Notes: a model not told the origin generated them from the sequence alone. A stretch of 36,655 nt of DNA from Candidatus Woesearchaeota archaeon (GCA_047639395.1 JBLINR010000002.1:1-36655); one strand, 5' to 3'. Numbered from the stretch's first letter, positions 9,801 to 36,300 are shown. Numbers and translations: made by a program.

Positions 9801-10575
9801 TCAATCAAAAGGAAAAGCAATTGTAAATCTTATTCCACTCCAAGAAGGAGAGGAAATCAGTGCTGTTATTCCTGTTAAAGAATTCACAGAAGGAAACTCA
9901 TTAATCTTAGCAACGAAGAAAGGTACAGTTAAGAAATCAAGTATACTTGACTTCTCAAGACCAAGACAAGGTGGAATCAGAGCAATTAGATTACTTGATG
10001 ACGATGTATTAATCGGCGCTGCATTAACAACTGGTTCTCAAGAAGTTATTCTTGCAACACGTAAAGGAAACGCAATTCGGTTTGATGAACGTAACGCACG
10101 AGAAATGGGACGTGTAAGTCAAGGAGTTCGAGGTATTCGACTTAATGAAGATGATCACGTAGTTGGTATGGTTATTGCAGATGATTCTCAAACACTTTTA
10201 ACAATTACTGAAAATGGATACGGAAAACGTACCAAAATTGAAGAATATCGTCTTATTAACCGTGGTGGGAAAGGAGTAATTAATATTTCTTGTAGTGAAC
10301 GAAATGGAAATGTTATTGCAGTTCTTCCGGTTGAAGATGAAACACATTTATTATTCATTTCCAAAAAAGGAATCACAATTAGAACAAGAGCTGATCAAAT
10401 ATCAGTCATTGGACGAAATACACAAGGTGTTCGATTAATGCGACTTGACCAGGAAGATTTAGTAGTGTCAGCAGCAGTAGTAGCACATGAGGATGTAGAA
10501 GATGATGAAGAATCCGAAGAACATACTGATGAACCTAGAGTTGATCAACCAGTACAAGATAGTAAACAAGCTTAA
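6859..10575 (+). CDS. gyrA: DNA gyrase subunit A, interrupted by an intein
   Basis: 1238 aa. It contains [28 protein letters not shown] and [16 protein letters not shown]|...|TEARM (the catalytic Tyr motif, split). C-terminal beta-pinwheel repeats and an acidic tail are present. Without the intein it is 835 aa, a normal GyrA length. Confidence 0.95.
7231..8439 (+). mobile_element. GyrA intein (403 aa) with LAGLIDADG homing-endonuclease domain
   Basis: It starts CITGDSLV (Cys1 codon 7231-7233) right after AAMRY and ends FINHN (Asn codon 8437-8439), followed by T of TEARM. Block B is SQNHPVL. The two LAGLIDADG motifs are [10 protein letters not shown] (about 7561-7605) and [12 protein letters not shown] (7852-7887). 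It is collinear with the Mycobacterium xenopi GyrA intein sequence as I recall it (CITGDALV...HN/TEARL). Confidence 0.9.
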
Positions 10576-18164: not shown

Positions 18165-18220
18165 ATACCCAGTATCAATGGTAGGTAAAGTAAGAGTTCT
18201 ATGTGCGAGGTTATCAAAAA

Positions 18221-19504
18221 ATGGCAAAAATAAGTCCTGTATCAGGAAAATATATCATTCGCGCAGATATCAAAATTGACGGAGTCGTAGACCGACCCGA
18301 TATTATAGGAGCAATCTTCGGACAAACTGAAGGATTGCTTGGTGCACAGTTAGAACTTCGAGAACTACAGCGAAGCGGTAGAATCGGAAGAATTGAAGTA
18401 AATACACAATCTAAAGCCGGTAAGACTATTGGTGATATTGTTATTCCATCATCATTAGATAAAGCTGAAACAGTAATTGTTGCAGCAGCATTAGAAATCA
18501 TCGAACGAATTGGTCCTTGTAATTCTACTATTCTTGTAGACAAGATTGAAGATATTCGAGTTTCAAAAAGAAATCACGTTATTAAGCGTGCAAAAGAACT
18601 TTTACAAGCGATGCAGACTACTGTATTACCTGATTCTCAAGATTTAGCGGATCAAGTTGCAGAATCTGTACGAGTGATGGAAATCACAAATTACGGTAAA
18701 GATAAATTAGCAGCAGGACCGGGAATTGATAGTTCTGATGACATTATTGTTGTTGAAGGACGCGCAGATGTAGTAACTCTATTAAAACACGGATTCAAAA
18801 ACGTTATCGCAATGAACGGAAGTAACATTACGCAAACACTAATCGACTTGTGTAAAACAAAAGAAGTTACAGTATTCGTTGATGGTGATAGAGGTGGAAT
18901 TCTTAACGTAAAAGAACTTATTGAAGTAACAGAAATTGACTTTGTTGCAAGAGCTCCAGATGGAAAAGAAGTTGAAGAACTTGCTCTTAAAGAAATTCAT
19001 AAAGCACTACGATCAAAAGTTGCACCTGATCAAATGAAGTCAGAATTAGCTTCAAAAGATTCATTACGAACTCGAGCTTCATCAGCTAATGCACGAGCAT
19101 CTACAAAAACAACAACTAGTCGTTCAGACAAACCACCAGATCGAAACAGTAGAAACACACGACCTGAAAGAAGTGAATCTAGCGATGCACCGCGTACGCG
19201 AAGACCAGTAAAACCTACTGATGATCAAATGAAAACATTTGAAACAGTATTAGAGGAATTAGTTGGATCACATGCAGCAGCGTTATTAGACGAATCTATG
19301 AACACACTTGGAAAAGTTCCAGTTGCTGAATTAGAATCAACTATTGAAGGTTTTGATGATGGTATTTTTGCAGTAGTTGTAGACGGTTCAATTGTGAAAA
19401 GTCAAGCAAAAGCTGCCGAAAAAGCACATGTGAAGTTTATTGTATGTCGTGAGTCATCAGTTAAACCTGCTGAAACGCGAACAAACATCATTACAATCGC
19501 TTAA
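18221..19504 (+). CDS. dnaG: Archaeal DnaG (Toprim-domain primase-like / exosome-associated) with an internal Ser/Arg/Thr-rich insertion
   Basis: KYIIRADIKIDGVVDRPDIIGAIFGQTEGLLG...LRELQRSGRIGRIEV is the archaeal DnaG N-terminus. Toprim motifs are IIVVEGRADV...VDGDRGG. GAGG lies 10 nt upstream of ATG 18221; the track start at 18203 is a GTG. Confidence 0.9.
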   Translation: MAKISPVSGKYIIRADIKIDGVVDRPDIIGAIFGQTEGLLGAQLELRELQRSGRIGRIEVNTQSKAGKTIGDIVIPSSLDKAETVIVAAALEIIERIGPCNSTILVDKIEDIRVSKRNHVIKRAKELLQAMQTTVLPDSQDLADQVAESVRVMEITNYGKDKLAAGPGIDSSDDIIVVEGRADVVTLLKHGFKNVIAMNGSNITQTLIDLCKTKEVTVFVDGDRGGILNVKELIEVTEIDFVARAPDGKEVEELALKEIHKALRSKVAPDQMKSELASKDSLRTRASSANARASTKTTTSRSDKPPDRNSRNTRPERSESSDAPRTRRPVKPTDDQMKTFETVLEELVGSHAAALLDESMNTLGKVPVAELESTIEGFDDGIFAVVVDGSIVKSQAKAAEKAHVKFIVCRESSVKPAETRTNIITIA

Positions 19505-19506
19505 AT

Positions 19507-20292
19507 CTACACTTGTGCAGATTTGCACAAGTATTCTTTTTTTATTTTTATATTATTATAACGTAATATCTGATATACTTTTTTATCTAGTGCTTTTCTA
19601 TCTATGTCTGTTAATACACATTTCTTATTATACAATTCAATGGGATGTCTTTTCAGATGAAATGTATCTTTGTTAGATCCATATCGAATAGCAAGTACGC
19701 TATGAAGTACAGATCCCTTTTCATTAAACACAAGAGATGGCAATACGTGAATTTTTTCTGATCTTTTTGATACAGGTTTAATTCTAGTATGTTTTTGCTG
19801 TAACGCTCTTCTAAATTTTCGCATTGGTTTGATAGGAACACCCATAAAAAACACTTGGCGCTCTAAGTTTTGATAATCTGTATTTGAATGAAACACATCA
19901 AACGCTGCATGTGAATGTCCCATTGCATGTACGCGTTTACCTTTGTCTTGCAGGTATTGTTGCGCTCTATGAAATGCACCTTCGTCAACATGAAACGATG
20001 AGCCTGTTATTCTTTGTTCTATGGGTAATACAAGATCATCAAGTGTTATTTCTGTTTCCTGATATGGTAACTCTTGGACTACTTGTTTTGTCTTGACATT
20101 TGCTCCATACAAAAATGCAACTTCATATGATTTTCCTGCTAAATCGCTGATTCGTTTACTAATATAATTGGATTGTAAAATAACTCTATAGTCAACACGA
20201 ACTCTGACTCTTTCTTGTTGTTGTACAAAATCAGTTTCTTCATGTTTTGATGTTAATAATGATTCAATAGTAAATGGTGTTTGTAAATTCAT
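19507..20292 (-). CDS. JAMM/MPN+ (JAB) metalloisopeptidase
   Basis: The motif is complete in track numbering: E68 (SYEVAFLYG) ... H137-S-H139-x7-S147-x2-D150 (HSHAAFDVFHSNTD, codons 19876-19917). ATG 20292 is preceded by GGAGG at 7 nt; the track start at 20325 is a TTG. Confidence 0.8.
   Translation of the reverse strand: MNLQTPFTIESLLTSKHEETDFVQQQERVRVRVDYRVILQSNYISKRISDLAGKSYEVAFLYGANVKTKQVVQELPYQETEITLDDLVLPIEQRITGSSFHVDEGAFHRAQQYLQDKGKRVHAMGHSHAAFDVFHSNTDYQNLERQVFFMGVPIKPMRKFRRALQQKHTRIKPVSKRSEKIHVLPSLVFNEKGSVLHSVLAIRYGSNKDTFHLKRHPIELYNKKCVLTDIDRKALDKKVYQILRYNNIKIKKEYLCKSAQV
19511..19549 (+). terminator. Hairpin plus T-tract terminator for dnaG, embedded in the 3' coding end of the JAB gene on the opposite strand
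   Basis: acttgtgca-gatt-tgcacaagt (9-bp perfect stem, 19511-19532) is followed by attc TTTTTTT a TTTTT (19537-19549). Confidence 0.45.
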
Positions 20293-20294
20293 AG

Positions 20295-21533
20295 TTAGGC
20301 CTCCAGCTTTTGTTTTTTTGTGCAATGATAAAAAAGGGGTTTTTCAAGAATACGACTTTGTACTGATAATTGTTGTTGTGCTACGTATCCCATCATTGCT
20401 CCCACAATCATGTTCGGAACAATGATTGACGGGTTTGCGACTCTTGCACAACTTGCATCTCTTGTTACTGTCTGCGGTTGTAAATCGCGTTGTAATGCAA
20501 TTGTTTTTGTAAATGGTGGTGTATATTGCGTGACCACACCTTTGTGCGTTGATACTGCACCTTCAATTACTTCTATTTTGTATTTTCTTGCAAAATCGGA
20601 AATGAGTATTCGACTATTAATAGAGTCAGTGGCACAAAAAATTGTGTCGTAGGGAACTCGTGTGTGTCTGCGTTCAAGTTGTTGAATTGATTGTTCTGTA
20701 AGATATTCGTTAATTGCACACCATGTTGTTTGTGGTGCTATTCTTCCCATGATACGACAAAGACTCTGTGCTTTTTGTTGACCAACTTCTGTTGCATACA
20801 AAAATTGACGATTAAGGTTTGTTGCTTCTACTGTATCTCCATCATACACATCAATTTGTTTGTAGCGACTAAATGCTACTTGTAATGCTAAATACGTTCC
20901 AATTCCTCCGGCACCAATGATTGCAACCTGTTTGGTTTTTTTTTTCGGGAGATGAATATGTCTTTTTGTGAATGCTCTCGGGCAAAGAGTTGTTTCTTTT
21001 TGAATGATTTCTTCGTTAGCTGTTAATGGTGCAAATCGTTTTCTTATCTCGTCACTTAACATTGCACCTAATAAGGGGGAGAGTAAACTTCCTAACTCAG
21101 TAGTTGGTTGCCGACTAACAACTGCTTTGTTTGTTTTTGTTGTGGTTGCATAATAAGATGCATGCACATTTTTTGCAAGTGTTGCAAATCTTTTATTTTT
21201 TTCTTCATGTTGATCGATGCACATGTGCGGGTTATCTATGTATTGTGTAAGTAAAGGTCCACGAATAAATTTCCAATTAAGCGGGTACCTTTTTTCAAAA
21301 ATATTCTTTGCTTGACGAACACGATACTGTGTTTTTTTATCACACAGATTTTGCAATAGTACTAGTGGTGTTTGTACATTGTCAATTACTGTGACGTCTT
21401 TTACTCCTAACCCTGCAAGACCCATTAGTAGGTATTCTGATGTGAGATTTAATCCATGAATAACAATTCTTGCTTCTTCAAGTTTCTTTTGACGTTCTAG
21501 TCCTAATGCACTTATATTTGCTTCGTATACCAT
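20295..21533 (-). CDS. E1-like ThiF/MoeB-family adenylyltransferase with an N-terminal degenerate (inactive-like) repeat
   Basis: The C-terminal half has VAIIGAGGIGTY (GAGGIG codons 20898-20915), DGDTVEATNLNRQFLY and Cys362 in RDASCARVANPSIIVPNMIVGAMMG (TGT 20448-20450). In the N-terminal half, ARIVIHGLNLTSEYLLMGLAGLGVKDVTVIDN and LGSLLSPLLGAMLSDEIRK echo the same fold without a Gly-rich loop. Confidence 0.85.
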   Translation of the reverse strand: MVYEANISALGLERQKKLEEARIVIHGLNLTSEYLLMGLAGLGVKDVTVIDNVQTPLVLLQNLCDKKTQYRVRQAKNIFEKRYPLNWKFIRGPLLTQYIDNPHMCIDQHEEKNKRFATLAKNVHASYYATTTKTNKAVVSRQPTTELGSLLSPLLGAMLSDEIRKRFAPLTANEEIIQKETTLCPRAFTKRHIHLPKKKTKQVAIIGAGGIGTYLALQVAFSRYKQIDVYDGDTVEATNLNRQFLYATEVGQQKAQSLCRIMGRIAPQTTWCAINEYLTEQSIQQLERRHTRVPYDTIFCATDSINSRILISDFARKYKIEVIEGAVSTHKGVVTQYTPPFTKTIALQRDLQPQTVTRDASCARVANPSIIVPNMIVGAMMGYVAQQQLSVQSRILEKPLFYHCTKKQKLEA

Positions 21534-22540
21534 TGTGTTTTATGTTGTAATGAACGTGGGTAATGAACAGGGGCGCAGTCTGGTGTATATCCAAACATGA
21601 GTACATTTTTTGCATAGTGCATTGCAGTTGCTAACTTAGTTGCAGTTTCTTCATTTTTTGGCATCCAAGAATTTTGATGTAAGTTAATTTTATTGAACCG
21701 AGAACTACCATTATAACAAATGGATCCATTTGAAAAAACAAAAAAATGTTCATATCCTTTTCGTGCTCTTGGAAATTGAGTAATAAGGCATTCATCTTGC
21801 GTATGTGTTATACGAAGAGTGAGTTGCGTTGCATCAAAATAATATTTTTGTGATTCTGCCTCCACTTCGTGTGCGGGTTGTTTTGTAGACAATACAATTG
21901 TTTGTTCGTCTATTTTTTTGAGTCTACAATTTTGATTATGCTGCGTGTGATCTCTATCGAATTCTTTTTGTGGTAATATCTTTTTTTGATAATGTTGATT
22001 CCAAAATGTTGTTTGTGGAATTCTGATGGGCTGTTTTGAAAAAAAGTGCCTACCAACTGAAAAATCAACATTTGGTCTTGGTTCTACTGGCACGAGAAGT
22101 TGTGTGTTTTTCTGTGTGAAATATGTGTTTGGTAAAATTATTTTTTGTTCTTTTGTTTGTTTTCCTTCTGGATTGGTTTGTGTTTCTTTTTTTGGCTGGT
22201 ACCACTGTAAATAAGCATCCGTGAGTTTTTTCCAAAAAGTATCAACCTGTTGTTCTTCTAAAAACCACTGTATATCTTCGCAGATCTCTGCTGGTTTTCC
22301 AAGTATAGTTGCAGTTGCATTTTTTTTGTTTATTGCAGGTACGTATACAGTATTATTAAACAGTACTGCTTGTTTTGTTTCTGCTAATAATTCTTGTAAT
22401 GGTGGTTTGGTTTGCGGCACAGGTGTTTTTTGACTAAAAATATGTGTTGGTTGTATACGCGGTTGCAGTTGTCGTACTACTCGGAAAGTTGTACGTGGCT
22501 GTATGTAAAATATTTGTCCCTGTACGATAGTTTGATTCAT
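21512..22540 (-). CDS. E2-like (UBC-fold) protein with an N-terminal region of about 220 aa of unknown function
   Basis: The C-terminal region reads YEH265FFVFSNGSIC275YNG...NSW292MP...LATAMHYAKNVL. This compares with the UBE2D active site [21 protein letters not shown] (from memory). The Cys codon is TGT at 21716-21718. The N-terminal part is Gln/Pro/Lys/Thr-rich with no recognisable motif. Confidence 0.6.
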   Translation of the reverse strand: MNQTIVQGQIFYIQPRTTFRVVRQLQPRIQPTHIFSQKTPVPQTKPPLQELLAETKQAVLFNNTVYVPAINKKNATATILGKPAEICEDIQWFLEEQQVDTFWKKLTDAYLQWYQPKKETQTNPEGKQTKEQKIILPNTYFTQKNTQLLVPVEPRPNVDFSVGRHFFSKQPIRIPQTTFWNQHYQKKILPQKEFDRDHTQHNQNCRLKKIDEQTIVLSTKQPAHEVEAESQKYYFDATQLTLRITHTQDECLITQFPRARKGYEHFFVFSNGSICYNGSSRFNKINLHQNSWMPKNEETATKLATAMHYAKNVLMFGYTPDCAPVHYPRSLQHKTQWYTKQI

Positions 22541-22552
22541 GTATGTTCCTAG

Positions 22553-22975
22553 TTACTTTCTCCCACCATCAAGTGTTGCAAGTAACTGTACTGCTATTGC
22601 TTTGTAGTCTGAATCTTGTGTATCTGTGTGAACAACACTTGCGTAATGTTGAGAAACTCTGTCTGTGAGTGATATTCTATATCCTGAATCAAATTGTCCA
22701 TCTCGTTTTGGAATCAGATGTAATGTTTGAGGTGTTGTTAATTCAGTTGCAATATAATCTGCAAGTCCACATTCATCAGGCGAGTAGTCGCTATTGTGTT
22801 CGTCCGCACCTGGGTCGAGTAAATATTGTACTACATCATCAAATGTTCCTTGGAGTAATTCTGGAGAAACAAGTTTACAAAGACCTGTTTGATCTTGTGT
22901 TGTACCATCTTCAAGTATTTTTGTTAGTGAGTCGTTAGGTGTATTTGTCACTAAAGTTATTTTTGTTGGTTTCAT
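22553..22975 (-). CDS. Ubiquitin-like (beta-grasp) modifier precursor ending in GG-RK
   Basis: 140 aa. The C-terminus is ...YKAIAVQLLATLDGGRK, with Gly137-Gly138 codons at 22562-22567 followed by only Arg-Lys and the stop. It is the first gene of the operon, 12 nt upstream of the E2-like gene. Confidence 0.55.
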   Translation of the reverse strand: MKPTKITLVTNTPNDSLTKILEDGTTQDQTGLCKLVSPELLQGTFDDVVQYLLDPGADEHNSDYSPDECGLADYIATELTTPQTLHLIPKRDGQFDSGYRISLTDRVSQHYASVVHTDTQDSDYKAIAVQLLATLDGGRK

Positions 22976-23093
22976 ATGTTTTTAGGAAGAACTGCTTTTA
23001 ATGGAGTTGTTGTATACATTTCCGGTTATTTTGCGAGTAAAGTATACGTTTTTTCAGATTAAGATGCACTGCTCGTCGTACCTTGTCGAAACA

Positions 23094-23101
23094 TTTATAA
23101 T
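23094..23101 (+). promoter_or_regulatory. TATA box (gaaacaTTTATAAT) for the large secreted-protein operon
   Basis: It ends 23 nt upstream of ATG 23125. Confidence 0.5.
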
Positions 23102-23124
23102 ATTAAAACACAAAATGAGTATCA

Positions 23125-25794
23125 ATGAGTAAAGGGTTTTTGAAAAGAGGGCAGATATCTGCGTATATATTTGTAGGTGTCTTGATAGCAGCGATTGCTA
23201 CAATTGGTATTATAGCAAGTAATCCTCTAACTGTGGATGTAACTAATACTCTTGAAGATTTTGCTGTTACTGAGCAAGTTGATCAGGCATTTACACAACT
23301 TCGCGTTTATGTTGAACAATGTATGGAGCTAACTGCTCGAGAAGCAATTGTATTATTAGGTACTCAAGGCGGATATATTGAACAAGATTTCCGTGTAATT
23401 GAACAACTACCTACTGAATCTGAAGCAATTCCATTTGTTCCTGGTAGCGATTATGTTGTTCCTTACTGGTTATACATGTTTGACTCAAACTCTTGTTTAG
23501 AAAATTGTCAATTTAATTCACACCGTCCTCCACTTCGTATTGAGGAAGCTCCTGATTCTACTGTTGCAATTGAACGACAGCTTAACGAGTACATGCATGA
23601 AAAAGTTACTGATTGTTTAGGAAACTTTGAAGCAATGGAAGCTGTTGGGTATTCGGTTGTATCTCGAGGATTACCTATCTTTTCGACAAATTTTCGTCAA
23701 GATGATGTACAATTTCTTTTAAATTATCCATTAACAGTTACATCTGGTCAAACAAATGAAGATTTATCACAATTCTTAGTTGAAATTGATGTTCCGCTTA
23801 AACGAATGTATGACTATGCGTCAATGCTTGCATTTTTTGCATCTGATCGTAACTTTTTAGAAAATCACGCTACATCACTTATCTCAACATATTCTAGTTT
23901 AAATCCAGGACAACTTCCGCCAGTTGCAGGTTCTTCTTTTGAATTTGCAAATACGCGATATTGGGTAACGGGACAAGTACGAAAACAAATTACTGAAATG
24001 TTAAGTGTATATGTTCCCCAATTACAAGTATTATATTCTGCTAATTATCAACCATTTGATATTGATCTATATCCTGATTCTGCTTCAAAAGATCCACAAA
24101 TCATGGCAGGTATTGAACGATTATACAATAATATGGTATTACCTATTGATCCTGCTAATTTTATCAATGAGAATGAAACACGCTTTGATGAGTTTGCAGT
24201 TGACTTTGCGTATTATGAAGATTGGGCACCGTATGTGAGTTTGAATGGTGGACAAGAATTAATCCAACCGCACAGTCTCTCAATTGATTTAATTCCATTT
24301 TTCGGAATAAACCAATACGAAACATACTATGATGTGAGTTATCCTGTTCGAGTAAGTGTGTATGATAAAGAGGCATTAAACGGCGAAGGATTTTCATTTA
24401 ACTTTGCACTAGAAGCAAATATCCGAGATAATCGTCCATTTGAAACTGGAGATGTATTAGTTGGTTCTTTAACTCCGTTAGAGGGTCATCTAGATTACTT
24501 TTGTGAATATGATCAACGAAATAGTGGCTTAATTGAGTTTACTGCAATAAATGCGATGAGTGGGCAACCACTTGTAAATCAACCTGTAACTTTTAGTTGT
24601 GGAAATACAAAAGTTGTGCAATCAGCTGTTTTTAGTTCGAGTCCTGCTCCTGAATCTGTTGAAAGCTATTTCAAAACCTCACATCCTGATTCTGAAATTC
24701 GTGTGACATTTGCACATGAGACATTATCCTTTCAATCATTCAAAGTTCTTGTTGATGACTTATACGTAACACAGTCTGGTGTTATTGCGTTTAATGAAAA
24801 CTCACAAACAAGTTCATTTACTCAAGGATCAAAAGTACAAGTTGATCCGACTGACTTTACTGCTGTGGGAAACACAGGTGCGCAATTACTTAATGTGTTT
24901 GATGATGACGTGGACTTTGAAGTTCTTAACACTGAAACAGGTGTTGTAGACAATTACCAAGTTCGAAATGATCAAAATTCAATTATTTTTACAAAAGAAA
25001 AACATACTCCTGCAACAAGATCTTGTAGTATTGATGTAACTGATGAGACTGGTTACTTTTCAGGAAAATTCCCTATTTGTGCTGGCGGATATTTATCTTT
25101 ACCTAGCACTGAATACTTACAATCAACATTCTTATTATCAACAAATCTTAACAAACCTGTTGATCTAGGTGTATTAGAATTACAACCAAAAAGAAACCTT
25201 ACTGTGAAAGTTAAGAAAAATTTGGTTAAGAAGTCAGGTGGTCTGTATTTATTTGAAAAAGAGCCTGTTAACTTAGAACGTTTTGAAACTGCGTACGTTA
25301 CACTTGAACGTGTGAAACACAATCCGCTTGAAGCTGATTATAGTGCATTCTTTGTATTTAATGGAAGTGGCGGACCTGATCTTTTAATTGATGGTGTTCG
25401 TCAGAATACTGATGCTGATGTAACAATTCAAGTTGCACCTGGAAATTATACGGTGACTATGATTCTTATACTGGATAATGAAGTGACAATACCTGCTCAA
25501 CCAATTTATGATGATGATGATGATCTTGTTACTACTATTGCTCCTATTACTTTACCGCAATCGCCATCAGGGAAATATGATTTGGATGAAACAACAGGGT
25601 ACTTATCATTAAGTGCTGCAGATCTTGACAGTGGGAAAGCTCTTGAGTTTTATGCAATCGGACAAGACCTTCTAAAAACATGTACAAAGGGATGTACTGC
25701 GAAAGACTTAAATATTGAAATATTCGTGGATCACTATGTGATAGAACACTTTAATACATTATATCCGAAATTTGTAGGTGTAAGCAATGAATAA
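23125..25794 (+). CDS. Large (889 aa) extracellular protein with class III (type IV pilin-like) signal peptide
   Basis: The N-terminus MSKGFLKRG-QISAYIFVGVLIAAIATIGIIAS has a charged n-region, KRG/Q, then a hydrophobic helix, like archaeal prepilin-peptidase substrates. The rest has no recognisable domain. Confidence 0.7.
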   Translation: MSKGFLKRGQISAYIFVGVLIAAIATIGIIASNPLTVDVTNTLEDFAVTEQVDQAFTQLRVYVEQCMELTAREAIVLLGTQGGYIEQDFRVIEQLPTESEAIPFVPGSDYVVPYWLYMFDSNSCLENCQFNSHRPPLRIEEAPDSTVAIERQLNEYMHEKVTDCLGNFEAMEAVGYSVVSRGLPIFSTNFRQDDVQFLLNYPLTVTSGQTNEDLSQFLVEIDVPLKRMYDYASMLAFFASDRNFLENHATSLISTYSSLNPGQLPPVAGSSFEFANTRYWVTGQVRKQITEMLSVYVPQLQVLYSANYQPFDIDLYPDSASKDPQIMAGIERLYNNMVLPIDPANFINENETRFDEFAVDFAYYEDWAPYVSLNGGQELIQPHSLSIDLIPFFGINQYETYYDVSYPVRVSVYDKEALNGEGFSFNFALEANIRDNRPFETGDVLVGSLTPLEGHLDYFCEYDQRNSGLIEFTAINAMSGQPLVNQPVTFSCGNTKVVQSAVFSSSPAPESVESYFKTSHPDSEIRVTFAHETLSFQSFKVLVDDLYVTQSGVIAFNENSQTSSFTQGSKVQVDPTDFTAVGNTGAQLLNVFDDDVDFEVLNTETGVVDNYQVRNDQNSIIFTKEKHTPATRSCSIDVTDETGYFSGKFPICAGGYLSLPSTEYLQSTFLLSTNLNKPVDLGVLELQPKRNLTVKVKKNLVKKSGGLYLFEKEPVNLERFETAYVTLERVKHNPLEADYSAFFVFNGSGGPDLLIDGVRQNTDADVTIQVAPGNYTVTMILILDNEVTIPAQPIYDDDDDLVTTIAPITLPQSPSGKYDLDETTGYLSLSAADLDSGKALEFYAIGQDLLKTCTKGCTAKDLNIEIFVDHYVIEHFNTLYPKFVGVSNE

Positions 25795-28700
25795 GAAGTT
25801 TATTGCAATATTCATTATTACTCTATTTATGACTCTTCCATTCTCATTTGCATTTAGCCTTAATGCTGTTTTCGTTGAGGGGGATATGAGTCCTCATGTT
25901 AATGAAATTAGAGGAGATGAAGACTTTACATACCGTGCGATACTTATTGCTGAACCAAACGATAAGGACACATCTGGAAATATTAAACCTAACTTTGTGT
26001 CTGCAATACCGAGTAGTCTCTATATCGGTAACAAAAATTCTGGGCGGGCTGAATTCTTCACATCTTGTGAAATCATAAATGATACTGGTAGTGTTGAATG
26101 TTTATTAGAAGAATCTGCTTTGACTTCAATTCAATCTCCATTAATACAATACTATACACGTTTTGAAAGACGACGTCGTATTGGATCTAACTTGCATACT
26201 GAAACCCAAGTTTTTAATGGTACATATATTGTTGATGATCGTGTGCCGGAATTAGAGATTATTGATACACAACAAGTATTAGATACATTGTCTATCACAG
26301 TAAAAATCACGGACAAACTTCGTCCAACATTCGAGGATCAACACGAAGGTTGTACTCCTATTTATACAGTAAAAGCATATATTCCTAGAACTGGACGAGA
26401 AACAATTAATACTGACGTTGAATTACAATCAAAAGGATGTTCCTTTGAACTTGTACTAGATGTAGATGTTTCTGAAATGTCAACTGGTGTTCAGAATGTG
26501 TGTGTTGAAGCAACTGATGGTGTTGACTTAACAGGTAAAATGTGTAAAAATGTACAAATTGATAAAGATGCACCGTTAATTCGAGAAATTGCAATTGCAA
26601 CTGAAGATAATAATAAAATTGAATTTATTCAAGAGTATGATGAAGGATTTATTCGTTTTAGAAAAACAAGTGATACTAATCTAAATACATTAACTATTTC
26701 CTTAAACGGTGTTCCGTTAAACATTCTTGAATGTCGTGAACGAAACATTTGTGTAACTACTGAATTCACACTTACACAAGGCACACATACAATTGAACTC
26801 TATGCTGAAGATACACGTGGTAATGTTGCTGATACACAAGTTATACAAACAATTGTTACTGACACTGCTCAACCTGCACTTGTTTCATTAGAATCAGATG
26901 TTGTTATTGATGGTGTTTCATTTATTACTCGAGGACAAAGTAAAATTGTTGCAACATTTGATGAAACACAGAGTGGGTTTCATAAACGAATTGGTTCTAA
27001 TTTAGTTGAACAAGTCCTTTTGCAACAGCGACATAGTGGTATTATACGACATGCAAACACGTGTACACAATCAAACTCACAATGGATTTGTACTTGGACA
27101 CAATTTCCAGTTCTTAAGACTGATCCTGATGGTCACTTTGATCTTATTCTTGTAGCTCGTGATGATACGGGTAACATCATGACAGGTGAAGCTGAGCATT
27201 TATTTATGTTGGATACGACGTTTCCTCAAGTTGATGCTACAGGTGTAACTACTGTTGGTGTTACTGGCACAGGTGTTGTTCAAAATGAAATTGTTACTGG
27301 TGATTCAGCTATTCGTGTTACTGTTCCAGTTACTGATGCAAGTAATATGAGGATTGTTGGTGATTTTACATCAGTTGGTGGTGGTTCTAATGTAACTGGT
27401 TCTTGTACTGATACGTCATGTACTGTTACTTCGAATACAATATTTTTGAGTGGCTTACAATCAGTGACTGTTCGAATCTTTGACTCATTTAATCGAGACA
27501 CACAAGTTACAACTGATGAAATCGAAGTTCTTAAATCAGGAGATCCTGAATTTTTGGATCAAGAATTCTTTTCACATTCATTAACAGTATCACCTTCACA
27601 ATTTGAAAAGACAACAAGTCGTTTCAAAAATCAAAAAGCGTTTGCCTCTATTAAAATTACATCTGATCAAGGTGCAAAAGCAACTACTTCTCGTCTATTA
27701 AGTTGTCGAGGACGAGATGGTGATCATGCAAATGATGATTCTTTCTTTAGCTCAGTAAATCAAATAACAACTGCTGACCCGAGTGAAACACTATTACAAT
27801 TAGAATTAAAAAGTGCTGATATTAATCAAGAAGAAATTCGTATGATTTGTGTTATTGGTGTGAGTGGTTCTGTTGATGGAACATTTATTCCTGAAGAACG
27901 TGAAGAAGTACAATTGGACTTTGGCACATATGCTTTTTCTATGGGTGAAATTGGTGAGAATCATGAAGCTGAAGTAGAAGCTGCAATTTCTGCTGCAAAT
28001 GATGGTATTATCAACACAATTGCAAAACTTGAAAAGTTTGTGAAAATCGCAGAGACACTTTGTCGATTACTGAATTTGTTTATGACTGTTCGAGATTTAC
28101 TTAAGACGCTAGGAGTTGGATTTAAATTCCTTGGTCAAGCATTAAGTACAAATCCATTTACTGCGGGCGCAGGTCAAGCATTATTACAAGCTGGTGCACG
28201 TATGTGTGGTATTGAGCAAACAGGAAATGAAGTTGTACGAAAAACATTTGTTGAAAGAATTCAAGGTGTATGTCAATTCATTACATGTGAGCGAAGTTTA
28301 ACTGGTGCAATCATGGGTTCATTTGGAGATGAAGGATTTATGGCTGGCAGTGAAAGTGGCGTTCTTGATAGAATTGGAACACGTTCCAATTTCCAAAATG
28401 ATGATGGGAATGCGAGAACTATTGAATATAATGACGGTGGACAAGATTCTGGTGCAAGTACTACTAAATCATTACTAACTGACGATTCATTTATCCCGCG
28501 GGATAATTTATTCTGGAATATTATTGATTTATGTATTCCTGGTATTATTAAAAATTTGAATAGATTACGACAACTTAAATGTCAATACGCAGTGTGTGTT
28601 CGAGATGATGTTCCACAAGGTGTACCTAAGAGTGCATGTGATGCAGCATTAGCGTATGGTGAGTGTAGATTCATTTACCAAACTATGTTTTCAGCATTCC

Positions 28701-28957
28701 CGCCATTTGCGTTTTTCGACTTTATGATGAATAAGTTGATTGCGTTAATCGCAAATCCATTTGCATTAGCTGGCTTTATTATTCAAAAAGTTATTTGTCA
28801 AGCTACTTGTGAATCGCCTGAGGGTTTTACATATAATGCGTGTGTTTCATTAACGTTGGCAAGTGAACTTGCAGCATCCATTCAACATATTATGAAATTT
28901 ATTAAAAGTTTAAGTGATAAGGAGTTCCAAAATGTCAACTACTGTGATCAGTTATAG
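25787..28957 (+). CDS. Large (1056 aa) secreted protein with Ig-like repeat signatures and a Cys-rich hydrophobic C-terminal region
   Basis: Sec-type signal MNKKFIAIFIITLFMTLPFSFAFS. Recurrent domain-boundary motifs are DDRVPELEI, DKDAPLIREI, DTAQPALVSL and DTTFPQVDA. The start overlaps the upstream stop by 8 nt. Confidence 0.7.
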   Translation: MNKKFIAIFIITLFMTLPFSFAFSLNAVFVEGDMSPHVNEIRGDEDFTYRAILIAEPNDKDTSGNIKPNFVSAIPSSLYIGNKNSGRAEFFTSCEIINDTGSVECLLEESALTSIQSPLIQYYTRFERRRRIGSNLHTETQVFNGTYIVDDRVPELEIIDTQQVLDTLSITVKITDKLRPTFEDQHEGCTPIYTVKAYIPRTGRETINTDVELQSKGCSFELVLDVDVSEMSTGVQNVCVEATDGVDLTGKMCKNVQIDKDAPLIREIAIATEDNNKIEFIQEYDEGFIRFRKTSDTNLNTLTISLNGVPLNILECRERNICVTTEFTLTQGTHTIELYAEDTRGNVADTQVIQTIVTDTAQPALVSLESDVVIDGVSFITRGQSKIVATFDETQSGFHKRIGSNLVEQVLLQQRHSGIIRHANTCTQSNSQWICTWTQFPVLKTDPDGHFDLILVARDDTGNIMTGEAEHLFMLDTTFPQVDATGVTTVGVTGTGVVQNEIVTGDSAIRVTVPVTDASNMRIVGDFTSVGGGSNVTGSCTDTSCTVTSNTIFLSGLQSVTVRIFDSFNRDTQVTTDEIEVLKSGDPEFLDQEFFSHSLTVSPSQFEKTTSRFKNQKAFASIKITSDQGAKATTSRLLSCRGRDGDHANDDSFFSSVNQITTADPSETLLQLELKSADINQEEIRMICVIGVSGSVDGTFIPEEREEVQLDFGTYAFSMGEIGENHEAEVEAAISAANDGIINTIAKLEKFVKIAETLCRLLNLFMTVRDLLKTLGVGFKFLGQALSTNPFTAGAGQALLQAGARMCGIEQTGNEVVRKTFVERIQGVCQFITCERSLTGAIMGSFGDEGFMAGSESGVLDRIGTRSNFQNDDGNARTIEYNDGGQDSGASTTKSLLTDDSFIPRDNLFWNIIDLCIPGIIKNLNRLRQLKCQYAVCVRDDVPQGVPKSACDAALAYGECRFIYQTMFSAFPPFAFFDFMMNKLIALIANPFALAGFIIQKVICQATCESPEGFTYNACVSLTLASELAASIQHIMKFIKSLSDKEFQNVNYCDQL

Positions 28958-31697
28958 GATACTTGTATGCATGCTTTGTGTTATGCTCTTCGTGCCTATG
29001 GTAAGTGCGGAGACTGTTGTATTGAGTTCATCACAAGATACACTTATTCAATACGTTGCTAGTGATGGTCAAAAAGTTTCGACTTTATTAGAACCGATTA
29101 GTATTGGTGGTACTAGGGTAACAACTGTCGTTGGATCTTCTGCACCTACTAGTAGAAATTCTGGAAACTCTTTTGAAGACGAAGTCAGTTATCTTGTGTT
29201 AGCGGCTAATTTGTATAGTTCTCAACTGACACTTTATGATTATTCGGATCCTGATCTTCCTGCACTGACTGCTGGAGTGGTTTTAACAGTTGAAGAATAC
29301 TACCTACCAATTACCGTTAGTGGATATGATTTAAGTGTTTCTCAGAATGGTCGGAGTTCGAGAGTGGCAACTGGTCCTCCTCCTGCTCCTGCTACAACAC
29401 CTACTGCTCCTAGCACAACACCAGCAACTGCTGACACACCTGCAACTGCTGGGACATTAACAGATGATGACGTAACTGCTGCAAATAATTGGTTTGCTTC
29501 TAAAAGCGGATCTCAAACGCAATCGGGATCACCTCAAGCTAGCTCTTCAACAGGAAATATGAAACTTATTGGTGAAGATAAAATTGGCGTTGTTGTAGGC
29601 TCTGAAAAATATTTTTTTGGAAAAGATGATGATGGGAAATTAATTGGTGCTATTCGTACTGATAATGCAGTTGTTGATATTCCTTCTGAAATTTTGGCAC
29701 AAGCTGGGATTACGAGTTTGTCTTCGTTTAAAGAGAAGGATGGTAAGATTCTAGTTGGGACAGAAACACTTTCTGAGATCACGGCTACTTCTATCACACT
29801 CGTTCCTGCTGATGGCAAAACACACACACTAGCGTATGCCAATCAAGCACAAGGTATCATTAGTGACACACCTGCTGGTAGTGAACAACCATCAACATTC
29901 ATTTTCACACAATCACGAGGATTGCGATTAGAACTGCGTGGTGCTGCTGCTGGTAAAGATTCAGACGACAAATCAGTTCAATATAAATTAACTCAAAAAA
30001 CCGGTGATTCTATTAGAACTGTGACAGTGACTACTGAGGATGCTAAACAATTAACTGAGAATATAGACAAACTCCAAGCGCTTTTCCAACATGCGATAGC
30101 GCAAGGTATTGATATTAATGCTGAAACTTTAAGACAAGCTATTGACAAAACAGATAAGGATGGAAATCCTATCACTTCCATCAGTTTTGGGGATTCTACT
30201 AGATTATTTTTCGGTACGACTGCGACGGTGAGTGTTCACACATTTGAATCTGGTGATTTATCTGAAGCAACCGTGGTTAGAGAAGATGGAACTACAACTA
30301 AGTATACTTTGCAAGGTGTGAGTTTAACGAAAGAAGGTAAAGATGATAAGGGCAAACCTATCACTCTTGACACAAGTGCTGATTTTGTTAAAGCAATAAC
30401 AAACAATGATGATAGCAAACTGACAAACTATCTCGTTAAACAATATGAATCACAAGTTGGGGATAAACCGTTTAAGACTCCGCTTAGAATTGAAACTATT
30501 GAATTTGATATAACTGGGAAACAAACATATGCTGATTATATTGCTTTAGAACCTGGGGACAAAGATACAGTTCAATATATTCACGAAACACAAACTACGA
30601 AGAAAAACATTATCACAGTTGTTCAAGTAACTGGTTCATTAAAACAAGATTCGGCTGATAAAAGTAAACTGATTTATTCTCTTAATGAACAAAGTACTGT
30701 TGCATACGAATTAGAAATTACTGGTAATAAAAAAACAGGAACTATACTTACTGTGCTTGATGATCAGGGCAGTCCAACTGCGAGTAAATTCAAAGTTAAA
30801 AACGGACTTCTAGGTGCTAAATTAACTTGTATTGATAAAACAGACTGTAATAAAGAATCACGTGCATTCAAAGAAGCAGAAAAAGCATTCAAAGAATCAC
30901 AATTAACAAACAGAAAATTAACTATTCAAGATGCAAGAAAACGTTATGAAGTATACAGAGACTCCGTAACGGGGTACAAAGCATTATCTATTGAGAATTA
31001 TCAAGTAACTGACTTTATGCGTGATATGCAATGGGCAGAAAACTTTGGGGCACTCTCTAGCCTATTTGTTGGTTCAGAGAGATTTGCTAAATGGGAATCA
31101 CAAGTAAAAGAACTTATACCAACAACTGATAGGTGGGTAGAAACGATGTGTAAAGCAAACTTAAAACCTGACGGTCCACAAAACACTGCATTTGTTAAAC
31201 TACCTGACGGGAGTGTATCTGCTGCTGCAACTACAGGTGGTGAGTGTTCATCTCCAGTTACTGCATATGATGTGACTGAACGATTATACAAATTTAGTGC
31301 GTATGTTGCAAACCCACAAGGTGTTCCTGAAGAAACTCCCTTGAGATTCGATATTTATATTCAAGACGATTCTGGTGAAAGACATGCATTGTTTGATGAT
31401 GCATTCGCACTTGATCCTGGTGGAGTACTAAGTTTAACTGGTCCTGATGCGGTAAGTAGATTTAGTGATAAACTATTTACACAAATCTGTATTGAGTTTG
31501 AAAATCCTCCTGAAATTTTTGAAGATAATACATTATGTAATGCTATTACCTGTCGTGAAATTCCTGAAGGTGGCTATACAGCTCCTCCTTTACTAGAACA
31601 AGATAATCCATTTAACGAAGATACTGTTAGTGGTGACGAAGCAATTGAATCACAACCAGGTGGCGCTCCAAGTATTAATGAGGATATATTCGGATGA
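28932..31697 (+). CDS. Large (921 aa) secreted protein with a Pro/Thr/Ala linker
   Basis: AAGGAG at 28919-28924 lies 7 nt upstream of ATG 28932; the track start at 28914 is a GTG. The signal peptide is MSTTVISYRILVCMLCVMLFVPMVSA. The linker is GPPPAPATTPTAPSTTPATADTPATAGT (about 29367-29456). Confidence 0.7.
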   Translation: MSTTVISYRILVCMLCVMLFVPMVSAETVVLSSSQDTLIQYVASDGQKVSTLLEPISIGGTRVTTVVGSSAPTSRNSGNSFEDEVSYLVLAANLYSSQLTLYDYSDPDLPALTAGVVLTVEEYYLPITVSGYDLSVSQNGRSSRVATGPPPAPATTPTAPSTTPATADTPATAGTLTDDDVTAANNWFASKSGSQTQSGSPQASSSTGNMKLIGEDKIGVVVGSEKYFFGKDDDGKLIGAIRTDNAVVDIPSEILAQAGITSLSSFKEKDGKILVGTETLSEITATSITLVPADGKTHTLAYANQAQGIISDTPAGSEQPSTFIFTQSRGLRLELRGAAAGKDSDDKSVQYKLTQKTGDSIRTVTVTTEDAKQLTENIDKLQALFQHAIAQGIDINAETLRQAIDKTDKDGNPITSISFGDSTRLFFGTTATVSVHTFESGDLSEATVVREDGTTTKYTLQGVSLTKEGKDDKGKPITLDTSADFVKAITNNDDSKLTNYLVKQYESQVGDKPFKTPLRIETIEFDITGKQTYADYIALEPGDKDTVQYIHETQTTKKNIITVVQVTGSLKQDSADKSKLIYSLNEQSTVAYELEITGNKKTGTILTVLDDQGSPTASKFKVKNGLLGAKLTCIDKTDCNKESRAFKEAEKAFKESQLTNRKLTIQDARKRYEVYRDSVTGYKALSIENYQVTDFMRDMQWAENFGALSSLFVGSERFAKWESQVKELIPTTDRWVETMCKANLKPDGPQNTAFVKLPDGSVSAAATTGGECSSPVTAYDVTERLYKFSAYVANPQGVPEETPLRFDIYIQDDSGERHALFDDAFALDPGGVLSLTGPDAVSRFSDKLFTQICIEFENPPEIFEDNTLCNAITCREIPEGGYTAPPLLEQDNPFNEDTVSGDEAIESQPGGAPSINEDIFG

Positions 31698-32572
31698 AGA
31701 AACACATTAATCTAAGAGATGTACTTTTTGTTGCTTTATTATTATTTGTCTTTGTCTATTTTGTCTTTGGTTTATCTGAAGATTCCTCTGGGTTACTGAT
31801 GAATTCCGCCTTGCAGATTGTTAATAATGATCCTGGAAAAGACTTAATGTTTAGTGGTGCGCTTGTAGAACGTGCACCTACAGCTGCTGAATTAGAAATT
31901 CTTAATTCGTATGTTGCAAAAGTACTGGTTATAATTCCATTACTGTTTGTCACATTTATACTTTCATTTGTTATATTTAATTCACTAATCTGGAATTGGT
32001 TAGTCTATAGAAAAATTAGAGTAACGAGAATACTTCGTCAAATTATTATGGTTATACCGTGGTTTATTCTTGTAGCAATCATGGGTATGATTATCATTGG
32101 ACTCCTGGGATTCTCATATACGCTATACAGTGTTCTAGCTTGGATTTCGACACTCATCATATTTATACTTTTAACTTTAATTACTTATTTTTTGATGGTT
32201 GTTACTATTATTCTTTATAGACAATTGACAATTACAACGATACCTTGGACTAAACCTAAAGCTCAAAAGAATACGTCCTTTTGGAAACGGTGTGTTCATA
32301 TTCTGAAAGTGTACTGGTCTTGGCTTGGTCATGCAACAAGAGAAACATTAACCTCTGTATCACAAACGTGGGAACTTGCAATTATGGGTGCTCCGAGATA
32401 TGTAAAAGGATTCTGTGTAGGAATCGCAATAAACATCGTGGTATTCTGGCCAGTATTCTATCTACTATTCAAGAATGGTTTTTACTTTGCAGAAACAGTG
32501 GTATTGGTATTAGAGATCATTACTATTGCTTGGTTTATTACATATGTAGATAAAAAGTGTAAAAATAAATAA
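31694..32572 (+). CDS. Polytopic membrane protein, 292 aa, last gene of the secreted-protein operon
   Basis: At least 6 hydrophobic segments. There is an ATGA start/stop overlap at 31694-31697. Confidence 0.65.
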   Translation: MKKHINLRDVLFVALLLFVFVYFVFGLSEDSSGLLMNSALQIVNNDPGKDLMFSGALVERAPTAAELEILNSYVAKVLVIIPLLFVTFILSFVIFNSLIWNWLVYRKIRVTRILRQIIMVIPWFILVAIMGMIIIGLLGFSYTLYSVLAWISTLIIFILLTLITYFLMVVTIILYRQLTITTIPWTKPKAQKNTSFWKRCVHILKVYWSWLGHATRETLTSVSQTWELAIMGAPRYVKGFCVGIAINIVVFWPVFYLLFKNGFYFAETVVLVLEIITIAWFITYVDKKCKNK

Positions 32573-33351: not shown

Positions 33352-36300
33352 GTGATTAACAATTTAGGTACTAAGAGCCAGTTTTATCTGCGCTCAGTAA
33401 TAATTGTACTATGTATTATCTTACTATCAGTATTCGCTGTAGCTCAGAACTTCTCCATTCTCAATGGTTCTAACAGTACTAATCTCACAAGTCTTACGCT
33501 AGCTAGCGTTTTGAATAACTCCAATAACAGTAATTCTTCAAGTATTATTTCCAATACAACAACTAGCGCGAATTCGACGAACAGTACGAATAAAACTATA
33601 AAGAAACAATCTCTCTTTGGGATTCAACAAGATTTTGGCACATTTGCTGACACGTTAAAAACAATTACTACATGTACAAATATCAGTTATTCAGGAACAT
33701 CTTACAGATTAGGAAACAATGTTTCAGGTGCTGACTCTTGTATTATTATTGGTGCAAGTAATATTACGTTTGACGGTGCAGGCTATCAGATAACATATGC
33801 TACTGGTGGTGGTAGCAATAACCAGGGTATTAATAATGCTGGGGGATATGATAATATTGTTATTGAGAATGTTAGTATCTTGGAAGGAACCACAGTTGAT
33901 TACAATAATTACGGGATTTTTTTTAGTAATGTTGTAGATTCTCGAATAAATAATGTTACGATTAGAACAAGATCCGGCGGTTCGCGTCAGATTTATTTAT
34001 ACGTAAACACGATGCGTGTTAATATAACTAATGCAACTCTCAGTAATACTGAAGGCAGTAGTGCTCCTTGTATTGAGATTGTTAGTAATAGTAATAGGAT
34101 TGATAAAGTGAATTGTGATGTATCAAGTACTAGTGGTTCTAAATTCGCTTTTGATATTGCTGGAGATTATAATAATATTTCAAATGTAAAAGTGGCCGGT
34201 TGTGGAGTAAACTGTCCTGCATTTTATGTGCGCGCAAGCTCACAATTTACACGTCTTGAGAATATTAATGCAACTTCAAGTGACGCTGCTACTCTTTGGA
34301 TAACTGGTGGTGATAATGTTACTGTGATAAATTCTATCATAAATACAACGGGAATTGGTGATTATGCATTGACTGTTGATTCAGGATCAACAGGATTACA
34401 AGTATATAATTCTACATTTAACGGTGATAGTGATCAACGTGCAGGGTATCTTTCTGGTTCTGCTCATGTATTCGATAATGTTCTTTTTCAAGGTGGAACA
34501 TTTGGGGCATTAAGAATTCTGTCAACTGGTAGCGATATGTTGTTTAGAAATGTCACAATAAAAGAAGGTACTACTGCAATATACACTGAAGGTTATAATA
34601 TCACTTTTGAAAATGCAACAATAAGCTCTGGCTCTACTTATGGGTTATACCAAGCTGCTGGTGCTAATATTACTTGGCGTGGTGGAACAATTGTTGGGTC
34701 GGCTGATGATATTTATGTTGCTGCAGGTTCGGGTGCAATCTCACTAACTAATGTTACATTAACAAATGATGATATCAGTATTGCAGGTGGAACTGCGCGA
34801 GTTATACAAAATTATTATTTAGACGTATTAGTAATGAATACCACAACTGTACAACAAGATGCGAATGTTACTATTTACAATACTTCTGGCAATCTATTAT
34901 TCTCTGGTCAAACTGATTCGAATGGACGTATTGTTGTACAGAATCTAACTCACAGAATAATAAACGCTACTTCAACGTATTATTCATCACCGTACCAAGT
35001 AAATACATCGCATTTAGGTTGGTTAGCTGGAAATACAATTAGTGTCAATTTAACTACAACTATGTTTAAAACGCTAAATGTTTCAAACACACTTACTAGT
35101 TGTGGAACTTTAGATAGAGAAAATGGTCAATATTCCCTTGGAAGTAATGTTTCCGCTACCGGAACATGTTTTACTATTGCTGCAAATGGTGTGAGTTTGA
35201 ACGGTGCAGGATATCAGATAACATATGCTACTGGAGGGACAGGTTATGGTTTAGATAACAGTGGTGGATATGATAATATTGTTATTGAGAATGTTAGTAT
35301 CTTGGAAGGAACCGCGGGTGGTAGTAACACTCACGGGATTTTGTTAACAAATACTGTCGATTCTCGAATTAACAATGTGACAGTACAAACGCGTTCTCAA
35401 TTTGCGAGGCAAATTTATCTTTATACAAACACGATGCGCGTCAATATAACTAATGCAACTCTCAGTAATACTGAAGGAAGAACATCGCATTGTGTTGAAA
35501 TTGATAGTGATAGCAACAGAATTGATAAAGTACGTTGTGATGCGACAGGTAGCTTTTCTCATTACGGTTTTGATATTGCTGGAGATTATAATAATATTTC
35601 GAATGTAAAAGTGTATGCTTGTGGAGCAAACTGTCCTGCATTTTATGTGAACTCAGGCTCACAATTTACACGTCTTGAGAATATTAATGCAACTTCAAGT
35701 GACAACCATGCTCTTCTTTTAGTTAATGGTGATAATGTTACTGTCATAAATTCTATCATAAATACAACGGGAATTAATGATTATGCATTGAGTGTTGATG
35801 TGTCATCAACAGGATTACAAGTTTATAATACAACTTTTGACGGTCAAAATAATCAAGTTTCAGCTTACTTAAGCGGTTCGAACCATCTATTTGACAATGT
35901 TATTTTTAATGGTGGTAGTTTGGGTGCTTTACGAATTATATCTACAGGTAGCGATATGACTTTTCGAAATGTAACTGTTAGAGATGGTACGACTGCAATT
36001 AATTCTGAAGGTGATAATCTCATTTTCGAAAATGTCACTGTTAATTCTGGCTCATCTTATGGATTATACCACACAAGTGGCGCTAATATTACTTGGCGTG
36101 GAGGGACAATTGTTGGGTCGACTGATGATATTTATGTTGCTGCAGGTTCGGGTGCAATCTCACTAACTAATGTTACATTAACAAATGATGATATCACTAT
36201 TGCAGGTGGAACTGCGCGAGTTATACAAAATTATTATTTAGACGTATTAGTGATGAATACCACAACTGCACAACAAGATGCGAATGTAACAATCTACAAT

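Follow-up and report, generated by a model that had tools for sequence, protein, structure and literature searches.

Complete cascades of ubiquitin-like modifier (Ubl), E1, E2 and deubiquitinating enzyme (DUB) outside eukaryotes are known from Caldiarchaeum, from Asgard archaea, and from the bacterial Bil and Bub defence operons. The haloarchaeal SAMPs, by comparison, are small and ThiS/MoaD-like, they have no E2, their genes are dispersed, and their activator UbaA is a homodimeric E1 of the MoeB type; in eukaryotes, the processing of ubiquitin and Ubl precursors is mostly the work of cysteine proteases. In Caldiarchaeum subterraneum, the JAMM protease CsRpn11 takes nine residues off the 87-aa CsUb precursor by cutting precisely behind Gly-Gly, and it also acts in deconjugation (PMC6043591). 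In the Bil system, BilC removes the residue(s) that follow the reactive Gly of BilA (e.g., Ala98 after Gly97) and cleaves conjugates, and the gene order bilA-bilB-bilC-bilD (Ubl-E2-DUB-E1) has been stated to be invariant (PMC10557695).

Here we describe a locus in a 36,655-nt stretch of DNA (the window) from a Woesearchaeota-like (DPANN) archaeon, in which four tightly packed genes on the minus strand encode a probable Ubl, a 342-aa E2-like protein, an E1, and a JAMM protease (JAB). A literature search for a ubiquitin-like cascade in DPANN found no description. The locus resembles the operon of Caldiarchaeum subterraneum and Asgard archaea (CsUb, E1, E2, small RING E3, CsRpn11) in being archaeal, in having a Ubl precursor with residues past Gly-Gly, and in encoding an Rpn11-like JAMM protease in the same operon, for which CsRpn11 is the best solved relative. 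However, mature CsUb has ~78 aa and shares 31% identity with eukaryotic ubiquitin, whereas the Ubl of the window would have 138 aa in its mature form and shows no detectable similarity to ubiquitin-family proteins. Further differences are that the E2-like protein is not recognised by Pfam, that no E3, RING-type or other, was seen in the four-gene cassette (flanked by DnaG and by secreted giant proteins), and that the host lineage is neither Aigarchaeota nor Asgard.

The locus resembles Bil systems in grouping genes for a Ubl, an E2 (in the window a candidate one), a JAB peptidase and an E1 into a cassette of four, and the BilD E1 has an inactive adenylation domain (IAD) followed by an active one (AAD), an arrangement that we also read in the E1 of the window. 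In contrast to Bil, the order in the window is Ubl-E2-E1-JAB (the A-B-C-D order was found in one distant locus only, L003), the E1 crossover is ~40 residues long rather than an alpha-helical CYS domain of ~80 aa, PADLOC matches neither the Ubl nor the E2-like protein nor the JAB, the match to BilC is marginal, and the surroundings are archaeal core genes instead of a bacterial defence island with CapH/CapP. The SAMP/UbaA/HvJAMM1 system of haloarchaea is comparable in its archaeal Ubl with a C-terminal GG, its E1-like activator, and its JAMM protease that cleaves after GG; unlike SAMPs, the Ubl of the window has no ThiS/MoaD match, and the E1 scores 55 bits with the UbaA model against a cut-off of 450 and is extended at its N-terminus by a further ThiF-like stretch. 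In eukaryotic precursors (NEDD8, SUMO, ubiquitin fusions), too, a short variable extension masks GG and is removed by a dedicated protease before E1 acts, although the modifier described here has no sequence relationship to them. By analogy, the system would work in the manner of the Caldiarchaeum/Asgard and Bil systems, yet it falls within neither. Novelty lies in the protein family with its predicted enlarged fold, in the candidate cryptic E2, and in the lineage of the host; the principle of the precursor tail is already textbook.

The cassette and its proposed pathway

Feature coordinates are collected in the table below. The preliminary description of this DNA had reported a 140-aa ORF ending in AVQLLATLDGG-RK-stop, and its coordinates and translation match. 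The ORF lies on the minus strand; the translated C-terminus is IAVQLLATLDGGRK, with KAIAVQLLATLDGGRK directly before the TAA codon. Since the first residues (MKPTKITLV) line up with the positions at which the homologues begin, the ATG at 22975 is the real start.

Table. Coordinates of the modifier gene, its cassette, and adjoining features in the window.
Feature	Position	Strand	Details	Basis
Ubl precursor gene	22553..22975	(-)	140 aa	ORF and translation, homologues, AlphaFold2 (AF2), Foldseek
Mature Ubl, M1-G138	22562-22975	(-)	predicted single expanded β-grasp-like domain	
G137-G138 codons	22562..22567	(-)	invariant; G138 carboxylate is the predicted adenylation/conjugation site	
R139-K140 tail codons	22556..22561	(-)	predicted to be removed, -284.2 Da	unconserved tails of homologues
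Ubl stop codon	22553-22555		TAA	
Divergent intergenic region	22976..23124		149 bp; separates the Ubl cassette from the cluster of giant surface proteins; presumed promoter region	gene coordinates
Candidate E2	21512..22540	(-)	342 aa	motif and operon position
UBC-like motif, Y263-E-H265-FFVFSNGSI-C275	21716-21754	(-)		
Putative catalytic Cys275 codon	21716-21718	(-)		
E1	20295..21533	(-)	412 aa; N-terminal second ThiF-like stretch and active adenylation domain at ~199-412	
E1 C362 codon	20448-20450	(-)	invariant; short crossover region	
JAMM/MPN+ metalloprotease (JAB)	19507..20292	(-)	261 aa from ATG 20292; 272 aa from TTG 20325	
JAMM motif	19876-19917	(-)	HSHAAFDVFHSNTD	translated
Giant secreted proteins	23125-32572	(+)	889, 1056, 927 and 292 aa; adjoin the Ubl cassette	

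Taken as a whole, we consider it probable that the product of this gene is a ubiquitin-like modifier in precursor form, the tail of which is trimmed before an E1/E2-like relay passes the modifier to lysines. In the predicted structure, the last strand (K125-T134) would lead into a flexible LDGG tail, and the Arg-Lys that follows GG would block the carboxylate of Gly138. By analogy with the characterised systems, the JAMM protease of the operon probably hydrolyses the G138-R139 bond, with a loss of 284.2 Da, and probably also reverses conjugation. The single-chain E1 would then adenylate Gly138 with ATP and take up the modifier as a thioester, probably on Cys362; from there it would pass to Cys275 of the E2-like protein and finally to lysines of target proteins.

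Related loci were gathered as the closest homologues of the E1, together with the contigs that encode homologues of the Ubl. The cassette of Ubl, E2-like protein, E1 and JAB is complete in the window, in a Candidatus Woesearchaeota MAG (L009; GCA_047603125.1), on a 1.56-Mb JGI contig (L010), and in L013, L014 and L016; it is incomplete on three truncated contigs (L001, L007 and L012). In more distant loci (L002, L003 and L006) the first gene encodes a protein of 126-140 aa, and the L006 and L002 products are weakly related to the Ubl family (E 1e-5 and 0.01, respectively). The first-gene products of the distant loci likewise end in Gly with or without a tail: KVG-stop, DVG-NENF, IQGG-YQPYRLSS and IFG-stop. 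The L003 cassette (3580-3990 and 9814-10194) is GC-rich and has the Bil-like order Ubl-E2-JAB-E1; it contains two Ubl-like paralogues, one ending in IQGG-YQPYRLSS and the other exactly at IFG, with two extra genes (428 and 386 aa) between them.

The E1, the E2-like protein, and the JAMM protease

The E1 matches Pfam ThiF (5.4e-38) over two stretches, of which we read the N-terminal one as a putative IAD. Its invariant set comprises GAGGxG, D231, D233, NLNRQ, K254, D303, R308 and C362, and its PDB matches include Uba4, UBA3, UBA1, SAE2, MoeB, ThiF and Cap2; BilD is absent among the 51 PDB matches. PADLOC returned matches for the adenylation domain of this protein only, to Cap2-type E1-E2 models. 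Only ~40 residues separate the AAD core from the invariant C362, which indicates that there is no separate CYS domain.

In the 342-aa E2-like protein, the H-x9-C motif YEHFFVFSNGSIC contains invariant Y263 and H265, and the Cys, 10 residues past the His, is aligned in seven of eight sequences. UBC enzymes carry HPN and a downstream C with a ten-residue spacing; HP is retained in the distant homologues of the 342-aa protein, and its SNGSIC is identical to that of UBE2D2. An hhalign comparison with five human E2s aligned exactly the H-x9-C motif, weakly (E 0.017, probability 2.6%), and the homologues occupy the same operon position, between Ubl and E1, in every complete locus. No match was found in Pfam, PADLOC, PHROGs, NCBIfam or the PDB, and single-sequence AF2 gave a pLDDT of 31. 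A scan for the motif found one GTDB species genome only, a Woesearchaeota MAG, and nothing in IMG/VR or in the first metagenome scan. We therefore put forward the E2 identity of this protein as a reasoned hypothesis, on the basis of a 13-residue motif and the position of the gene.

The JAB has six invariant residues in six sequences (E68, H137, S138, H139, S147 and D150; H137 and D150 are numbered on the 272-aa form). Its profile matched CsRpn11 (6fjv, 7.6e-7), CSN5 (1e-4), Rpn11/PSMD14 (7e-4) and BilC (5e-3) in the PDB and, marginally, also reached archaeal JAMM1; PADLOC and PHROGs gave no match. A JAB, as the preliminary description had it, and an E1 are co-encoded with the Ubl, and the JAB has the full JAMM catalytic set, with CsRpn11 as its closest solved relative. 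When the JAMM motif was searched for as a degenerate DNA pattern, three short contigs matched, of which one was informative. The mechanically called ORF, from TTG 20325, overlaps the E1 gene by 31 nt; the ATG at 20292 is the likelier start, since the resulting N-terminus (MNLQT) agrees with that of the orthologue in L001 (MNLTQ) and the gene then begins 2 nt past the stop codon of the E1. A C-terminal extension of the JAB (residues 169-216 in 272-aa numbering; 19678-19821) gave a sub-threshold Pfam match to Ubiquitin_DCDC1 (E 0.0074, below the cut-off), possibly representing a β-grasp appendage or else noise.

The same enzymes could belong to a pathway of adenylation only, in which the small protein would be a sulfur carrier (like ThiS, MoaD, SAMP or Urm1) that receives a C-terminal thiocarboxylate for the thiolation of cofactors or tRNA, with the 342-aa protein having a role other than that of an E2. 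ThiF, MoeB and Uba4 are indeed among the best NCBIfam and PDB matches of the E1, the E2 assignment is weak, and SAMPs too carry a C-terminal GG and use JAMM proteases (PMC6043591). Nevertheless, we regard a sulfur carrier as unlikely, because the ThiF, MoeB and UbaA scores are far under the curated cut-offs, the E1 contains no rhodanese domain, and its second N-terminal ThiF-like stretch is the arrangement described for canonical eukaryotic E1s and for BilD. Moreover, the Ubl is about twice the size of ThiS and MoaD and has no similarity to these families, an invariant His/Cys protein lies between Ubl and E1 in every locus, and the nearest solved relatives of the JAB are of the Rpn11/CSN5 type.

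The C-terminus and predicted fold of the candidate modifier

Word-indexed homologue searches with the Ubl and with the 342-aa protein returned only the query itself. For the Ubl, it took a HMMER scan run exhaustively over 1.84 billion cluster representatives to find relatives; this yielded 16 further matches: 14 full-length proteins (136-166 aa), one 86-aa fragment, and one false positive. The last, the second-best match (P0123; 2.5e-14), is a 4988-aa T9SS adhesin of Bacteroidota type; it was rejected as repeat-inflated because it consists of ten weak matches of one Ig-like repeat to Ubl residues 54-101. A sixteenth member of the family is encoded on metagenome contig L016. No match to the Ubl was found in Pfam, NCBIfam, PADLOC or PHROGs, and three of the four cassette proteins (all but the E1) fall outside every curated family.

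In the alignment of 15 sequences (38% mean column identity; homologues 24-32% identical to the window protein) invariance is confined to three columns, N61, G137 and G138, and both glycines are also kept in the L016 member, such that GG or GGG stands at the end of the last predicted strand in 16/16 members of the family. Conservation of GG among homologues had been named beforehand as a check on the assignment. Asn61 (codon 22793-22795), the sole invariant residue besides GG, lies in a D-E-x-N-x-x-Y loop between two helices. By contrast with the glycines, the sequence after GG cannot be aligned among the homologues: the tails of the 15 sequences are 0, 0, 1, 2, 2, 2, 3, 4, 4, 4, 4, 5, 9, 21 and 23 residues long, that of the L016 member has 19 residues, and the first residue after the last Gly is variously R, L, Y, A, N, M, Q, H, I or F. 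Two homologues (P0124 and P0135), both encoded on truncated contigs, have their C-terminus exactly at GG. A lone GG near a C-terminus is unremarkable, occurring within the last 26 residues of 11.8% of the 169 ORFs of at least 100 aa in the window and the related loci; the weight is carried by the comparative pattern. Invariant glycines that end the last strand, followed by a hypervariable and disposable extension, would be expected of a Ubl that is destined for conjugation and is synthesised in precursor form, and the proposal of a Ubl-type protein with a reactive Gly-Gly masked by a short tail is thus supported.

It is conceivable that GG is kept for structure or binding in a non-conjugated β-grasp adaptor from which the tail is never removed, or that an unrelated peptidase trims the tail. 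Cleavage is here predicted by analogy, and a general carboxypeptidase could take off a tail of two residues. In L006 (4694-5095 and 7182-7823), where the positional analogue of the Ubl ends exactly at Gly (NTKVG-stop), no JAMM motif was seen in the 214 residues of the partial ORF after the E1, which is one isolated indication that the presence of a tail may go together with that of the protease. We assign this alternative a low probability: a hypervariable tail of 0-23 aa beside two invariant glycines argues that the tail is discarded and that GG is catalytic, and a JAB is present in every complete operon with a tailed Ubl.

AF2 with the Ubl alignment predicts one compact domain (mean pLDDT 90.9, pTM 0.85), confidence dropping in the last ten residues only. 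DSSP assigned strands to residues 4-9, 16-20, 26-30, 32-36, 84-91 and 125-134, helices to 45-53 and 66-80, and a short helix to 111-114, with short bridges at 94-95 and 101-102; the LDGGRK tail follows strand 125-134. In the model, the elements run β1, [hairpin], β2, α1, [extra helix], β3, β4, 3-10 helix, β5, tail, which is the order of ubiquitin with two insertions; strand pairing was inferred from this order, from the pTM, and from the span of the Foldseek alignments. One homologue (P0138) lacks residues ~17-31, exactly the hairpin, as would be the case if this element had been inserted. A Foldseek search of the PDB gave matches that are each individually non-significant (best E 0.098, TM 0.3-0.5), but the top ones are mostly β-grasp domains (SAP18, the Ubl domains of TBCB and TBCE, RA, Raf RBD, USP11 Ubl, FERM F1, DIX and UBX), and TGS and elongin B are also listed. 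The alignments to these domains of 80-130 residues cover ~130 query columns. Foldseek against the viral BFVD library found nothing, sequence and profile searches of the PDB with the Ubl gave no meaningful match, and hhalign of the Ubl alignment against ubiquitin, NEDD8, SUMO and FUBI sequences revealed no relationship (E 0.36). Based on the model, we conclude that the Ubl is predicted to be an enlarged single β-grasp-like domain.

The preliminary description had instead suggested that the 140 aa could hold two β-grasp domains, or a pro-region followed by a C-terminal unit of ~60 aa. With two domains the protein would be a tandem di-Ubl like ISG15 or Type I BilA. The protein is about twice as long as ubiquitin, the Ubls of Type I Bil systems do have two β-grasp domains (PMC11601603), and residues 100-115 were the part that hhalign weakly aligned to ubiquitin β2-α1 (at the E-value of 0.36 given above). 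However, residues 1-80 are arranged β-β-β-β-α-α and residues 84-138 β-β-α-β, so that the β-grasp order is found in the whole chain and in neither half; the pTM indicates one rigid body, the Foldseek β-grasp alignments extend over nearly the full query, and P0138 dispenses with the hairpin only. The two-domain and pro-region arrangements are thus very improbable, and a second, N-terminal Ubl-like domain is not supported, leaving the enlarged single domain as our preferred reading. Least probable is a RiPP-like C-terminal modification (of MccB or PaaA type), with the small protein as a precursor peptide and not a protein tag: MccB and PaaA occur among the PDB matches of the adenylation domain, but the substrate is predicted by AF2 to be a well-folded domain of 140 aa, the cassette has no exporter or immunity gene, and it holds a conserved core chromosomal position beside the DnaG primase gene.

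Genomic setting and significance

The window encodes archaeal L31e, S19e, RIO kinase, ScpB, DnaG-type primase, RPA and a Dim2-like KH protein. An origin of the cassette from a virus or mobile element was rejected on the basis of a uniform GC content (~35%), the archaeal core genes in its flanks, and the occurrence of the E2-like motif in no viral contig. Elsewhere in the window, the gene for DNA gyrase subunit A (6859-10575, (+), 1238 aa) contains an intein, which includes a homing endonuclease of the LAGLIDADG type (Pfam Intein_splicing, LAGLIDADG_3), and a large ORF of >880 aa (34012-36655, (+)) runs past the right window end.

DnaG is adjacent to the cassette in five loci. Between the window (18203-19504, (+)) and L010 (7158-8522) DnaG is 62% identical, whereas the four cassette proteins and the giant secreted proteins are ~30% identical, which indicates that the cassette and the giants are both evolving fast, the cassette much faster than its neighbouring core gene. 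The first two giants are homologous (26-34% identity) and adjoin the cassette in each of the seven loci that extend far enough (the window, L007, L009, L010, L012, L013 and L014); the giant cluster is divergent from the cassette in six loci, and lies downstream in the same direction in L010. The first giant has an N-terminus with a class III (type IV pilin-like) signal peptide, e.g., KRG-QISAYIFVGVLIA. The adjacency of the giant cluster and the Ubl cassette may reflect a functional link, or it may be synteny of the lineage only.

A more far-reaching proposition is that the locus represents a lineage-specific ubiquitin-like conjugation system of DPANN archaea of the Woesearchaeota type, in which a new, enlarged β-grasp modifier and a cryptic E2 are functionally coupled to the giant secreted cluster. 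We offer this as speculation, and consider it rather doubtful; if true, one role of the Ubl system might be to tag or control the surface structures through which these episymbionts make contact with their hosts.

For the pathway proposed here, in which a trimmed modifier would be relayed to lysines, the precursor tail provides a clean biochemical handle, in the form of a 284-Da loss of mass. Because the modifier and the E2-like protein are invisible to sequence searches of Pfam, NCBIfam, PADLOC and the PDB, surveys of how ubiquitin evolved may miss some systems of this kind. To the cascades known outside eukaryotes, the locus would contribute a third set, unrelated in sequence, and would do so in genome-reduced DPANN archaea, in which every retained pathway is informative.
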